Sequence record: NZ_CP145666.1
From: a plasmid
Strand: one strand, 5' to 3'
Length of the DNA: 64,000 nt
Below are positions 33,001-39,000 of this stretch, piece by piece. A program made the position numbers. Numbering within the stretch: the stretch's first letter is position 1; each line of letters begins with the position of its first letter.

Positions 33001-36000
33001 ATCTCATTAATGGCAGGTATCGTATTTTTTGGTGCTGTGTATTACCGTGCCGAATATATCAGATTCCTTGGCCCAATCTGGCTGGCAATTTTTATAACGG
33101 AACGCGGTTTACTGTTCACTGGTCTCGGTTTTGTTACCGCGACTGTATGTGTAGTTGTTGCTTTACTCGTTATTTATAATTCATTCTTTACCAAGTCTGG
33201 GAAAAAATCTAATGAAGCAACTAATGGAAACATGGTTGAAGGTGTTTCTCGGGCTGGGTCAAATAATGACAAAGCCAAATATGCAAACCATCGTTTTGAA
33301 GGAAAGCTTGTTTACCACGGTCTCGAAAACTGGAAACACGATCCTAATAACGATAAATCGTATTTAGTCACAATACGTAGTGGTGGGAAAGACCATGAAA
33401 TTTGGGCTGTTGGGCTCAAAAATGCTGTTGAGACTTGTGGAGCACAAGTTGGTGATATTGTTTCAGTCTGGAAAGAGTCTGAAGTAAGAACCGACAAAGC
33501 ACAAGTGTTTGACGAAAGCGGTAAGGTTACAGGGTATCGTACTCTCCTTAACGAAAAACGTCGCGGCATTTGGGTTATGCAAGTACTCGCCGAAAGCTAA
33601 AATATTCTTAATTCAGGCTATAAGCCTTAACTTTTTAATCTTTTAAATATATGAGGTATATTATGACAATTGTCTATGGTAGTAGCATTGAGCCGGGTGG
33701 TATGGAACTGGATGATTACACAATGATTGCAGAGTGTGAAAATTGTGGGAAAGACTGCCGACATCGGATTTATGAAGACTGTGTTGCAGGGGCAATAAAC
33801 CAGAGATTCTCTTATACGTGTAATCACTGCGGTTATCATTCCTGTAACGCTGAAGTATGTGACGTATGCGATAGCATCGAATGCGAAGAACATGCTGGTC
33901 GTTATCAGTCTAATATTTTCTTCGAAATGCATGAGCTCATTGAGCTCATGAAAATAGAGGGAGATATACTGGCAATCAGAGCAAAAATCAATGTAGGCGC
34001 TCACGACTTTGGAGATCTTTCAAAGTTAGATGATTGCCTGCATAGGCTCACCTTTCCAGGTTACTATGAACGGCGAAATACTGATCTCTATAAAGAGATA
34101 TCAGATGCTTCAACCGACATGGCAATCCAAACATGGAAGCGTCTGGAACGCTTGTTATGCTAAACCTCCCTATAAAAACCCAGCGAAAGCTGGGTTTTTT
34201 TCTTTTCTGGATTGACCAACCAAACGTCGTATCATAATCTTATATCGCGGGCATCCCGCTTAACTTCTTTTAACACTCTTTATTTCGGCAACGCGCCATC
34301 CCTGAATGAATAAGTTCATTCGCACGGCTTCCCTACGCCCATAGAATTCGACACACGGTGCATCATGCATCGTGTTTTCTGCGCCGTCGAAAAAGGTGTT
34401 TTTCCTCTTGTTGAGGATACAGTGAGTCCAGCACTCTAACTGGATGCTTCACAAATCTTTCTAATTTTTGTGCCTATAGCACTAAATCATTTTAACTTTT
34501 TTAATTTAAAAATTTATGAGGTATAAACTATGCAATCCAGAGCAAAGGGTATTGTTGCGATAGAACCTAAATATGTGCCTGCATCTAACAATGCAGATTC
34601 ATATATTTATTTCCGTTTGCGCTGTGACATGTCCATTAGCGGCAAGTCTCAGACCGAGTTCTATTCGATAAAAGCATTTGGTAAAGTCGCGGATTTTCTA
34701 CGCGATAATATTCAAATGAATACCGAACTGTATATCGAAGCATTAGCTCGATCATTCCGTTATACAAAACATGGTATTGACCAAATGAGGACTGAGTTTC
34801 ATGTTTTCATGGCTCGAATCATTCAGACTGGTCAATCAATAGATACCCGTGCAAATGAAACTGTAAAGCCACCATCTACATCAACCGTCACTTCGCTATC
34901 CCCTCAAGTAGCGCAAAAACTTAAGGACGATATGAAGTGGCAGAAAATGTCTGATGAAGAGGTAAGAACTGCTTCTGAAAAATGGAGAACAGTATATGCC
35001 GAGCAAAAGCAGCTGCACCCTGGAAAAGAGTCTGTATCACCAGACAACAATAAAAATTCAGTAGAGAAGATACCAGAAGCTTCGCCGAAGCTGGATGCTA
35101 AGAATAGAGCCGTGCAGACATCACGTCCGCAAGCCGCAACCTCTAAGCACCCTGTCAACATGCAAGCCTGGACAAATCTGCCAGCCGATAATTCGACAGC
35201 AGCCGTTATTGTAGCTCGTATGAAACTTAATGAAAAATTAAGCTCCTCCGGGCAAGTAACTTTAACTAACGCATATTCATCAGTTCGCGGTTGATATGAC
35301 TGGTTGCTGATTCCTCAGCAACCTTCTTCTTTTTTAATCTTATAATTTATTTAATTTAATGAGGTATATATGTACTCAAATAAATCACGTAGTTCTGGTT
35401 CATTCTCAAACAACAATAAAGGGAACACCGATATTGTCGTTAAGATAGACAGCATTGCTCGACATATGTTGTCGCTCGAAAAGATGTTTGCATCCGCAGG
35501 TTCCAGTTCACCTCACATCTCATTCGAACGTGAATGCGTTTTTGCAAAACATATTGTCAACAATAATAACTACTTGGCTGACATAGCAGTTAATAATCCA
35601 AAGTCCTTCGAAACAGCATTCCTTCAGCTTGCAAGTAGCGGCCTTACTCTTGACCCGGCGCAGAAGCAGGCTTACCTGGTTCCACGCGATGGTCGTGTCA
35701 TTCTTGACGTGTCCTATATTGGGCTCAGCAGGATGGCCACCGATGAAGGTTTATGCGAAGACATTGTGGCTGAATTAGTTTTTGAAAAGGACTCATTTAA
35801 AACCAATGGTCGTCGTTCCAGCCCAGACCACGAATTTGACCCCTTTGCTTATAAAGGGGGACTCGTTCTCACAAACACCGATCAGGGTGCTTTAGGAGAT
35901 CGAGGCATGTTCAGGGGGGCTTATGTCGACTATTTAATGAAGGATGGACGTCATCTGGTATTTTTCATTGACCTTCAGGATTTAGCTCAATCTCGGGCGA

Positions 36001-39000
36001 AATCCGAATCTTGGGCAAAAGTGGAGAAACGGCAGTATTCACCGTGGACTCAGTTCCCTTGGAAGATGGTGCTCAAGTCAGCTATTAAGCAGACCATACA
36101 CTTAATTCCTGGTAACCGTACTCGCCTGAGTTCAATGATTGAATATCTGAACACTGCTGGTGGTGAAGGTTTCCGTACAGCAACAATACCCGTCGCAGCT
36201 GCTGAAGCTGAAATGGAGGTTAGACAAGAAGCCAGGACGGCTGGTAATACGGATACTACAATCCGAACTGCAAAGTCTGATGATAAAGTTATTGAAGGTG
36301 AGTTTAATAAGCTCCCTGAAGAACCTGATTCAACCGAGCAGCAGGACATCAAGAGCAATACACCAACCGATGTTTACGATACGGCTGAGGGAAATACACC
36401 TCCAGCTGACGTAAATGGTTCGGCTGATGATATTCTCCCTCCACCCGGAGAAACCAATGGGCAGTCCAATGAAGAAATGTCTGAGCATCCCGGGGTCAGA
36501 AAATGGGCTGAACGCAGAATTAAAAAGTTAGTAAGCCGGGCAGAAAAGACGCTTGGATACGAAACTATTTTAAACGATGCAAAAAGCAGTTTCGATCTGA
36601 ATGAAAGTGAGCTGGCATTCGCTCGCTTATCTTTAGAAAAATCCCGTCGGTCACTTCTCAAAAATCATTTAACTAACGCAGTAGGTAGCTTCGATTTTAC
36701 TCAAGTACTTAACTTCATCGAAAAAATGGGTAAGGGTGAGTTTAAAACCGACGCGGCCAAATGGGTCGGTGAAGTCCAAGCCGAATCAATGGAAATACAC
36801 AAGTTATATCTTGAGGCTGTTAATACATCTGATTTTGTGAGGCTCAATGCCGCTCTCAACAATGTGACATTTCCCCCTCTAAAAGAAATGGTAGAAGGTC
36901 TTATTGAAGATCTTCTGGCCGCTTAACTTATCCGGCAGGAAACTGCCGGTTTAACTTTCTAAATTTATCTTAAGGTGATCATTATGTCTGACATTTATGA
37001 AGTCGTTGATGTTGTGCAGGGCTCAAAGGAATGGCTCGAATGGCGTAAAACTGGTGTGACAGCAACATGCTCCCCTATTCTGTTAGAGGAGGCTGGTGCA
37101 ACTAAAACGCCCTACGAACTCTATTTGCAATACGCTGGCCTGATTAAGGCAGAAGACCTTTCTGTCATTAAACAGGTTGATGCTGGTAAAAAGCTTGAAG
37201 CACTTGCCAGAAGTTACTGCGAAAAAGAGATTGGACAAATCGCCCTGCCTTTCTGTGTAAGGAACAAAAAGTATCCTTACATGATTGCTTCGCTGGATGG
37301 GCAGTTCGACGATGGTTCAATCCTTGAGATAAAGAATCTTTGCGAGAGCAAACATCTTTCTATTCTTCAGCTTGAAACCAAATCGCCAGAATTCCGTTAT
37401 TACTACTGGCAAGTTCAGCACCAGCTGCTGACAACAGGCGCACCCCAGGCGTATCTTGTGTTTTGGTCGGCCACTGACCAGACCAAGGTCTTTAAAATTA
37501 TGCCTTCGAAGAAAGCGTTTTATCGAGTCCAGGTTGCCTGCGAATACTTCTGGAATAAGGTTCAGACAAAAACAGCTCTACCGTTTGATAAGGAAAAAGA
37601 TATTTTGCTTATCTCTGACCCTGAAATCATGTCTCAGACACAAGGCTTTAAGCTTCCAGACGACCTCGAAGCTCGTGTGGTAGACATAGCCAGACAAGTT
37701 GGAACATTGCAGCAGATGGAGAAAGAGTTGGCTTTAAAGAAAAAGCAGTTCGAAGAATACCAGAACGCGGTCAATTTATTGATCCAGGGTCTAGGTGCTT
37801 CTATTGGCTTTTCCTATAACGAGCTGGTTAGAATCGATGGCTTTGGCTTTCGTTTTCTTCAGTCTCGCGTACCGGAAAAACCGAGCTACAAACGAATCTG
37901 CGATAAATTATCTATTGACCCCAAACATCATCCAGAATGTTACGGTCAGTCATCGGTACGAAATTCGTTAAGTACCTATGAATATAAATCAACTCTGACT
38001 GATACTGTCTACATTCCTTTGGATGACACTTCCGTACTGGTATCTCCTGGTGCAGAAGAGACAGACTCAGCCCAACAATACGTTGTTTTTTAATTATTGA
38101 GCCCAGTTTAAAACTGGGCTTTTTTTTTGCTTGACCAATTACACATCCTTTATTATCTTTAAATAGCGGCTTAGTCCGCTTAACTTCAGGCAACTGCCTT
38201 TAAACACCTTCTAAATTCGGCGCTCAAGCCACTCCTGAATACCTCCTGGTATTCACAAGGATTTCTTTCGCCTAAACAAATTCGATAGCCTGCGGCTCTC
38301 ATAAGCGGCAGGCTTTTTTGTCCGTCGAAAAAGGTGTTTTGTTGTCACGTAGACAACAACAAGTGCCTCAGTCACTCCCAAACTGAAACTAGTACCTAAC
38401 TTCAGCCTTCATGCAAGGCCTAATTCATCTAATTCACTAATCTTTTTAAATGAGGAGTCTGATCATGTTTCTTGTAAATATGACTGCATATCTTGCATCC
38501 CCAGAACAACGGGAAATGGGCGTTATTGATGTCGATCAGCAAGTATCACACGCATTACGTGAACTGTTGACCTTTAATACCTGTCCTTCAGAAGATGTTA
38601 TGACCGATAAAGCTAAAGAATTTGCTGAAATCGCTACATCACTCTGTAATAAATATAAGGCTGATGGTGTACTTGTTTATGCCAAAACCTATTTTATGCC
38701 TGTTCTGGTCTCTGCATTGAGAGCCAGAGGCATCGTTTCTTATGTAACGTATGCACCAAAGGTTACCAGTGTTGATAACAGTGGCAGTGTTAGCCGCAAT
38801 TATAAGCATGTCGATTTAGTACGTGCTGATATTGCTGCATAACATCATTCTTCTTAATTAATTTTTAATTTTTAAATCTATCTAATTTAATGAGGTATAT
38901 CATGACTACTAATTTCGCAAACCTGTCTGTTGAAATCATGGCGCGCTCTACACCTGTCCACCCTTCTGTATTTGGTATTGTTGTTCCAGATCATCAGATG

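Follow-up and report, generated by a model that had tools for sequence, protein, structure and literature searches.

A conserved promoter-leader RNA family precedes the ssb-recT-exo and MoxR-DUF3150-VWA operons of MOBH plasmids

In conjugative elements of the SXT/R391 and IncC families, the recombination genes bet and exo are transcribed from SetCD- or AcaCD-dependent promoters and are restrained by a translational attenuator (PMC4542580). The IncC ssb-bet-exo genes and an adjacent AAA ATPase gene counter CRISPR-Cas and restriction, and their expression is required in the recipient; the host-defence-evasion locus of IncC and R391 repairs CRISPR-Cas breaks, and that of IncC also evades restriction (PMC7498323). 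Here, we analysed a stretch of 64,000 nucleotides (nt) of the plasmid record NZ_CP145666.1 (the window), which belongs to a large conjugative plasmid of the MOBH / MPF-F type and has a backbone similar to those of IncC, SXT and Rts1. Two paralogous units were found on its plus strand. Element A (copy A, 34174-34529) is followed by an ssb-like gene, recT and a gene for a YqaJ-type exonuclease, and element B (copy B, 38099-38464) by a gene for a protein of 125 amino acids (aa) and genes for a MoxR ATPase, a DUF3150 protein and a VWA protein. Unlike in SXT/R391 and IncC, where SetCD or AcaCD promoters and the bet attenuator control the homologous ssb-bet-exo genes on the same tra backbone (PMC4542580), the locus analysed here carries two insertions, each comprising an internal terminator together with a sigma-70 promoter and a structured leader, in place of control by a master activator combined with a translational attenuator. 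The element represents a conserved, previously undescribed family of promoter-leader RNAs of limited phylogenetic spread.

Several other described systems resemble the element in part. The CI RNA of phage P4, the c4 RNA of phage P1 and putL/putR of HK022 are small structured RNAs that derive from the leader behind a constitutive promoter and that target, in the same transcripts, sequences complementary to them or located downstream; the put RNAs come in two paralogous copies, one behind each early promoter. Within the leading region of IncN plasmid pKM101, the conserved upstream (CUP) repeats described by Delver and Belogurov in 1997 reportedly form a DNA-level regulon under protein repressors, in which promoter-bearing repeats of a few hundred base pairs (bp) precede several establishment genes, much as the element does. 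We know of no RNA structure, internal terminator or pseudoknot in CUP repeats; the element is set apart from them by description, and no IncN plasmid was recovered in the distant blastn search detailed below. The 5' leaders of attenuators and riboswitches share with the element a promoter, a long structured untranslated leader and an intrinsic terminator before the first gene, together with conserved junction nucleotides and a pseudoknot. Finally, the Frpo/ssi elements of IncF and IncI1 leading regions are, like the element, paralogous structured repeats of ~300 nt that stand before ssb and anti-defence genes in one orientation (PMC11541004).

Each unit comprises about 350 bases and consists of a terminator, a promoter and a highly folded untranslated leader with an internal terminator of its own. 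From 5' to 3', the parts are the terminator of the upstream gene, TTGACC, 17 nt, TAnnnT, 6-7 nt, hairpin H1, the block YTAACWTC, hairpin H2, AAACACCTT ... TTCGGC, GCC, hairpin H3, CACGG, a variable stretch, AATTCGAY, hairpin H4 with a pyrimidine run, CGTCGAA..GGTGTTT, hairpin H5, a pseudoknot, an AU-rich variable linker, a Shine-Dalgarno sequence and ATG. The original prediction had described two paralogous elements with a -35 box, hairpins and an invariant block, and the features it listed were found in both copies within 0-2 nt of their predicted positions, in regions that align block by block. The parts thus stood, but the start did not, as the terminator of the upstream gene belongs to the unit as well. 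A terminator scan placed this intrinsic terminator at 34174-34199 (+) behind the gene for a 170-aa protein, where its T-run abuts the -35 box of copy A, and at 38099-38121 (+) behind the exonuclease gene. Hairpins homologous to the former covary in other plasmids (CCCAGC/GCTGGG, CCCTGC/GCAGGG and CCCGAC/GTCGGG). The upstream terminators would shut out incoming transcription. Sigma-70-type promoters are located at 34212-34240 (+; TTGACC at 34212-34217, 17 nt, TAATCT) and at 38131-38159 (+; TTGACC at 38131-38136, 17 nt, TATCTT).

All parts of the two leaders lie on the plus strand. The leader of copy A (283 nt) starts with H1 (GCGGGcatCCCGC, 34247-34259), the predicted 5' end of the transcript, and the conserved unpaired block TTAACTTC (34260-34267), whose consensus YTAACWTC is present in all copies. 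The 5' strand of a long-range helix, P1 (AACACTCTTT...TTCGGC, 34270-34289, with TTCGGC at 34284-34289), lies inside a C-rich, G-poor tract and is followed by H3 (GAATGAAtaagTTCATTC, 34304-34321) and a junction region (34323-34351) with the blocks CACGG and AATTCGA, conserved in all copies. Next come H4, a GC-rich hairpin with a T-tract that is predicted to act as internal intrinsic terminator (34353-34380, -13.6 kcal/mol), and the 3' strand of P1 (GCGCCGTCGAAAAAGGTGTTTTT, 34381-34403), which contains the invariant 19-mer CCGTCGAAAAAGGTGTTTT (34384-34402). H5 (TCCTCttgttGAGGA, 34403-34417), an H-type pseudoknot (34421-34444; S1 AGTG/CACT, S2 TCCAG/CTGGA) and the AU-rich variable linker (34445-34529), which carries the Shine-Dalgarno sequence as well as lineage-specific small hairpins, lead to the ssb-like gene, which starts at 34530.

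Copy B (leader of 299 nt) has the same layout: H1 (38166-38179), the block TTAACTTC (38180-38187), H2 (AGGCaactGCCT, 38188-38199), which copy A lacks, the P1 5' strand (TTTAAACACCTT...TTCGGC, 38200-38221, with TTCGGC at 38216-38221), H3 (TGAATACCtcctGGTATTCA, 38236-38255), a junction region with CAAGG and AATTCGA blocks (38256-38285), and H4 followed by T6 as putative internal intrinsic terminator (38287-38319, -18.1 kcal/mol). Downstream lie the P1 3' strand (GTCCGTCGAAAAAGGTGTTTT, 38320-38340) with the 19-mer CCGTCGAAAAAGGTGTTTT (38322-38340), H5 (GTTGTCacgtaGACAAC, 38341-38357), the pseudoknot (38362-38387; S1 AGTG/CACT, S2 TCAGT/ACTGA) and a variable linker with the hairpin GCCTTcatgcAAGGC and the Shine-Dalgarno sequence (38388-38464), before the gene for the 125-aa protein starts at 38465. 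The invariant block recognized initially is therefore the 19-mer of the P1 3' strand. What had been taken for two further stem-loops is one hairpin, H5, plus the H-type pseudoknot, although pairing is indeed kept there with differing sequence. Both leaders fold with z = -5.1 compared to dinucleotide shuffles.

Relatives were collected by distant blastn with each copy against 72,556 plasmids, and the resulting loci were then searched by nhmmer and a core-domain covariance model. Plasmids of 200-450 kb with 100% identity to the window over the 7 kb tested (33000-40000) were found in Citrobacter, Klebsiella, Enterobacter, Kosakonia and Salmonella, among them NZ_CP018017.1 of Kosakonia radicincitans DSM 16656. 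Diverged relatives (70-85% identity) reside in other MOBH plasmids, and blastn matches were obtained in MOBH plasmids only. Every carrier plasmid possesses exactly two copies, always on the gene strand, and the carriers fall into at least four MOBH groups: the window (Citrobacter) type with this window and a Kluyvera georgiana contig; the Rts1 / IncT lineage with Rts1; the pKOX type with pKOX-ea2b, pUL-CPE-01 and pECTOK-001_1; and the pCHS type with pCHS4.1-3, pW1-a, pW51-a and pPROV084-1, plus Morganella and a metagenome-assembled genome. Copy B is always positioned between the exonuclease gene and the gene for the 125-aa protein, while copy A precedes either ssb or a gene for a Cys-rich 177-aa protein with ssb next. 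Among the relatives examined, those of the IncC, SXT-like and pAQU-like kinds lack the element. With filters off, the covariance model found no match in an IncC plasmid, pVPS92, an SXT-like Proteus plasmid and a Pseudomonas plasmid, and with default filters only, none was found in an Azotobacter plasmid. In the SXT-like Proteus plasmid, the exonuclease gene and the gene for the 125-aa protein are separated by 37 nt. A scan of a genome collection yielded duplicates of known lineages and a near-identical Kluyvera pair only; a metagenome scan used too loose a pattern, so that all 120 loci returned were chance matches, and a scan of a viral collection gave zero matches.

The duplication that gave rise to the two copies is old, since B copies are orthologous across plasmid groups: the window's copy B shares 67% identity with B copies from the pCHS4.1-3 group but only 57% with the window's copy A. 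A recent duplication, the condition under which the similarity would merely reflect ancestry, is thereby ruled out. For Rts1 and the pKOX group, identity between the two copies of a plasmid is 86-99%, which points to gene conversion. In the pKOX-ea2b group (loci L003, L006 and L013), the copies form direct repeats of 95-99% identity flanking ssb-recT-exo, and recombination between them would delete the recombination module. Rts1 also carries, in the intergenic region beside an AcaB-like gene (locus L002, 5979-6117), a weak full-length covariance-model match of 16.5 bits that lacks the P1 blocks. This match is at most a relic, perhaps a third copy that has decayed; no counterpart was present in the window at 32400-33100.

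As the two window copies alone are insufficient to establish covariation, we used a model-based alignment of 18 distinct copies, the two of the window and 16 from other plasmids. All 18 share a promoter signature: TTGACC is invariant, the spacer is always 17 nt long with free sequence, and the -10 box is always TAnnnT (TAATCT, TATCTT, TACTCT or TATTGT). A fixed -35 box and spacing, a free spacer and the conserved T1, A2 and T6 of the -10 box indicate a sigma-70 promoter under selection. H1 begins 6-7 nt past the -10 box in every lineage except one. This constant short distance places H1 at the 5' end of the transcript, and transcription should start at its first base. In the A copies of the pCHS group, one pair of H1 (27-34) has changed from G-C to A-U. 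A potential second promoter inside copy A (TTCGCA-17-TAGAAT, 34319-34347) has the right spacing in this copy only; in other lineages, the two boxes are 22-23 nt apart by manual count on aligned blocks, and we treated it as a chance occurrence.

Within the core domain, 92% of the pair cells are standard pairs, compared to 34-47% when the partners are slid by 1-3 columns. Changes on both sides were observed for 10 of the 31 pairs, and none of 500 column shuffles reached the observed covariation score. This signal sits in H3, where six of eight pairs are double-changed, and in H4 (four of nine pairs, with 100% of the cells paired). Correspondingly, H5 and the pseudoknot are 91% paired (35-47% in slid controls), with double changes in 8 of 17 pairs. 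H5 counterparts read GTTGTC/GACAAC or GTTCTC/GAGAAC in other copies; S1 of the pseudoknot is AGTG/CACT in most copies and GATG/CATC in copy A of Rts1, with G-C to A-U changes in two separate lineages, and S2 has three pairs with double changes. Stem-preserving covariation, proposed from the two window copies, thus extends to further homologues and exceeds both shuffle and slide controls. The secondary structure is under selection, and this conclusion is well supported.

The core pair cells contain 45 G-U as opposed to 4 A-C pairs, and reading the opposite strand lowers pairing from 92% to 84%. The leader before H4 has a C/G ratio of 2.1-2.7 (2.1 for the tract of copy A) compared to 1.0 for the whole window. 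Together with the T-tract after H4 and the direction of the promoter, the G-U excess and the C>G skew identify the plus strand as the functional one, acting as RNA; the functional strand is therefore the transcribed strand, as originally assumed. For H5 and the pseudoknot, the corresponding counts (8 G-U and 8 A-C) do not discriminate between the strands. DNA folds of the minus strand likewise gave good scores (z = -4.3 and -5.9), which would fit a single-stranded DNA element of the incoming strand, that is, a promoter or priming signal of the Frpo/ssi type as present upstream of IncF/IncI1 ssb; the paralogous structured repeats of ~300 nt upstream of ssb and establishment genes have a similar layout (PMC11541004). 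We nevertheless consider such a role highly improbable. In folds of the template-strand DNA, the structure is multibranched and the -35 and -10 hexamers are unpaired and outside any long hairpin, unlike the paired promoter of Frpo, and the sequence of the -35/-10 spacer is unconstrained. The G-U excess favours the RNA-sense strand, to which the T-tract and the C>G skew are also specific, and the probable origin of transfer is ~22-26 kb away. The blastn search matched MOBH plasmids only and returned no IncF or IncI plasmid, with Frpo sequences being compared in this way only and not aligned directly. On structure, strand and similarity, a Frpo-like single-strand promoter was accordingly rejected.

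The 19-mer CCGTCGAAAAAGGTGTTTT is the 3' strand of P1, a helix of ~20 bp, and its partner is the AACACC...TTCGGC block ~110 nt upstream. P1 was found in nine of nine independent, lineage-by-lineage minimum-free-energy folds, in which it closes a multibranched domain holding H3 and H4. Its duplex energy is -18.8 to -23.5 kcal/mol in all lineages (z = -2.7 to -4.6 compared to shuffles), with -20.3 kcal/mol for copy A (z = -4.2) and -20.4 kcal/mol for copy B (z = -4.6). P1 varies solely by lineage-specific extensions (G-C in copy B of Rts1, GC/GC in copy A of Rts1, CAGC/GCUG in copy A of pW1 and GCGC/GCGC in copy A of the window), and its core is invariant, also in a cross-lineage matrix of duplex energies computed to assess co-evolution of the two strands. 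In the RNAalifold structure, GUCGAA is paired instead with UUCGAY in the AATTCGAY block, which is nearer, and 16 of 16 sequences are able to form this pairing; GUCGAA therefore has two possible partners, UUCGGC or UUCGAY. In total, ~80 nt of unpaired or long-range-paired sequence are invariant across lineages in which the stems have diverged freely. The stems drift, but neither the unpaired blocks nor the two strands of P1 vary in either paralogue or any lineage, which is suggestive of a two-state switch or of a common partner that acts in trans.

Invariance in sequence rather than covariation would also be expected of a DNA-level operator, in which a plasmid repressor or activator binds double-stranded DNA at the invariant blocks, including the inverted repeat AACACCTT...AAGGTGTT. 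We rate this as very improbable. The half-sites are 110-135 bp apart at a lineage-dependent distance, and covariation of the RNA type, including that of the pseudoknot, runs throughout the sequence between the blocks. The 19-mer has exactly two sites in the 64 kb when up to three mismatches are allowed, with 0.02 expected by chance. It is absent from every tra-operon promoter region, in a window that holds all tra operons, and is therefore unlikely to be the box of the FlhDC-type master activator. The conserved blocks likewise occur at the two elements only, in a scan made with the element's own blocks rather than with the activator box published as a figure in PMC4207636.

An alternative is RNA-only feedback resembling the immunity conferred by the CI RNA of phage P4 or the c4 RNA of phage P1. 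Here, the terminated leader RNA would be the active species, and its exposed, conserved tract AAACACCUU...UUCGGC would pair in trans with the complementary block in nascent transcripts of both loci, so that both are shut down once the RNA accumulates and the operons are expressed only transiently after entry. Several observations are consistent with this RNA-only feedback. In the terminated RNA as predicted, most of the P1 5' strand is free of pairing, and cross-copy duplexes are about as stable as same-copy ones (-23.1 kcal/mol for the 5' strand of copy B with the 3' strand of copy A). While stems that act only in cis drift, neither strand of P1 varies between paralogues or lineages, as expected of a pairing that two loci share, and the regulated genes are needed in the recipient (PMC7498323). 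However, both strands reside on the same transcript, where cis pairing should beat trans pairing, and the target lies 3' of the terminator, where the pairing has no evident ribosome-binding site or further terminator to act on. The leader transcripts are predicted from sequence; compared to P4 CI, P1 c4 and the put RNAs, no sequence or Rfam similarity and no fitting processing signals, target ribosome-binding site or downstream terminator were identified. We therefore regard the feedback as unlikely, and so too a protein-free, RNA-only timing circuit built on it, with a burst of expression in the naive cell followed by silencing through the ~150-nt RNA.

H4 carries the features expected of an attenuating leader. 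Its energy ranges from -13.6 (copy A) to -20.3 kcal/mol across lineages, a run of 5-7 pyrimidines, nearly all T, follows directly 3' in all 18 copies, and it lies ~150 nt upstream of the start codon, giving the arrangement of promoter, untranslated leader and GC-rich hairpin with U-tract that defines such leaders. An RNA ending at H4 is predicted to be ~134 nt (copy A) or ~154 nt (copy B) long. In contrast to attenuators and riboswitches, the 3' strand of P1 is downstream of the terminator, so that the terminator lies inside a closed domain, and neither an antiterminator competing with the terminator nor a leader peptide, known aptamer or Rfam match was found.

These negative results came from several searches. 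Rfam 15 gave no match in the whole window at gathering thresholds; at permissive E-values, there were only weak matches to the terminators of the upstream genes (best 28 bits, with a gathering threshold of 50), thus nothing relevant. Literature searches returned no description of the element. No open reading frame (ORF) is conserved on either strand, and the leader ORFs differ in frame, position and sequence between lineages, so that protein coding does not explain the conservation, in line with the original prediction. Coding sequences annotated as 'hypothetical protein' in Rts1, Providencia and Moellerella plasmids overlap copy A and are not conserved as ORFs (L002 7131-7496, +; L004 8166-8291, -; L005 7995-8177, -; L010 1878-2039, -; L011 1807-2019, -); they are probably spurious annotations. 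No ligand-type switch or known aptamer was found in the leader. A type III toxin-antitoxin RNA was rejected, as there are no tandem repeats and the downstream genes are the ssb-like gene and that for the 125-aa protein.

The same anatomy, and the same failure to find an antiterminator, leader peptide or known aptamer, would be compatible with a constitutive cassette without conditional control. In such a cassette, the first terminator would insulate the promoter, the second would be partly leaky and hold the output low, and the 5' structures would have a stabilising effect. For a passive leaky terminator, however, ~80 nt of invariant sequence and a conserved pseudoknot would be superfluous, and we find this explanation unlikely.

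Taken together, we moderately favour a model in which the element is a sigma-70 promoter with an attenuating leader RNA that co-regulates ssb-recT-exo and 125aa-MoxR-DUF3150-VWA. The original proposal, a promoter-leader unit with a probable role as cis-regulatory RNA or as a ~150-nt RNA terminated internally, is supported. The element would be a self-contained expression cassette that acts first as DNA, through terminator and promoter, and then as RNA, through the leader. H4 would end most transcripts, resulting in low expression and in a stable released RNA of ~135-170 nt (134 nt for copy A and 154 nt for copy B) bounded by a 5' hairpin and the 3' terminator hairpin. Polymerases that read through would add the 3' strand of P1, upon which P1 could close the whole 5' domain and bury the C-rich, Rho-loading-like tract and the terminator; the closed domain, H1 and the pseudoknot may then protect the operon mRNA. 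As a two-state switch, pairing of GUCGAA with UUCGGC or UUCGAY might set the ratio of termination to read-through. In this way, both halves of a likely host-defence-evasion module would be co-regulated. The cassette promoter lacks hallmarks of dependence on the plasmid's FlhDC-type activator, as far as its sequence suggests, and the operons could therefore fire once a double-stranded plasmid exists in the new host.

A number of points weigh against this model. The independent diversity among the 18 copies amounts to only about 6-7 lineages. The strands of P1 hardly vary and are without classical covariation, and the outer part of the helix is only 75% paired in the model-based alignment, owing to register shifts. 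No conserved antiterminator to H4 emerged from folds of truncated transcripts or from upstream blocks checked by hand, among which no covarying partner was seen; H4 formed in eight of nine lineages, and the fold of copy B of Rts1 that lacks H4 has no comparable counterpart elsewhere. All alternative pairings found are located 3' of the terminator. The transcription start, termination at H4 and read-through are predicted, and protection from Rho and RNases is something we purely infer.

On the plus strand, the window carries mobH, traD, traLEKBV, dsbC, traC, trbC and traU in this order, followed by an AcaB-family regulator gene (31805-32551, -) and, between this gene and element A, two unknown genes (+). 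Elements A and B with their operons come next, and traF, traH, traG and traN (+) are located 3' of the VWA gene; an FlhC-like activator gene lies at 56684-57217 (-). The MoxR gene behind copy B shares 34.7% identity with the IncC AAA ATPase adjacent to ssb-bet-exo. By analogy, ssb-recT-exo and 125aa-MoxR-DUF3150-VWA are probable counterparts of the IncC/SXT host-defence-evasion locus, as two halves of one module. Searches in Pfam and PHROGs assigned no function to the 203-aa, 170-aa and 125-aa proteins. A Cys-rich protein family of ~170 aa with CxxC repeats, for which neither database gave a match, has paralogues on either side of copy A in different plasmids (window 33651-34160; L006 11452-11955 and 12338-12871; L002 of Rts1 7573-8103).

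Within the block from ssb to VWA, many genes are preceded by near-identical translation-initiation regions of TTTAATTTAATGAGGTATAT and then ATG (33627-33660, 34492-34525, 35331-35369, 38862-38900, 40001-40039 and 45069-45107), some of which contain TTAACTTT, similar to the 'epsilon' translational enhancer of phage T7 gene 10. GC-rich hairpins with weak T-tracts are located 3' of the ssb-like gene (35302-35323) and of recT (36932-36949); they may be intercistronic stabilisers, partial terminators or a counterpart of the SXT bet translational attenuator. Directly upstream of the MobI-domain gene (61078-61506), three direct repeats occur at a spacing of 157 bp (60551-61018). By analogy with Rts1, IncC and SXT, in which the origin of transfer (oriT) adjoins mobI, these repeats at ~60-61 kb probably mark oriT, and the candidate oriT is 22-26 kb from elements A and B; literature searches yielded no polarity of transfer. 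Two further direct repeats of 70 nt (63141-63542) are 87% identical, lie 332 bp apart and each contain a GC-rich inverted repeat.

The element adds an RNA family of ~230 nt with an unusual architecture, in which a terminator is enclosed by a long-range helix and followed by a pseudoknot, and it explains a number of 'hypothetical protein' annotations in deposited plasmids that seem to be spurious. The control of the module differs from that in the sister elements, as two insertions of one terminator-promoter-leader cassette have rewired it. Its carrier plasmids are widespread clinically and environmentally; they were found in Citrobacter, Klebsiella, Enterobacter, Providencia, Proteus and Morganella, with many clinical or wastewater isolates. 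If the leader acts as a regulated attenuator or through RNA feedback, it would represent a novel means by which a plasmid times the expression of its establishment genes, and it might serve as a target when establishment is to be blocked. Should the RNA-only circuit hold true, it would be a plasmid counterpart of the RNA immunity of P4 and P1, and a third route to zygotic induction beside single-strand promoters and protein repressors.

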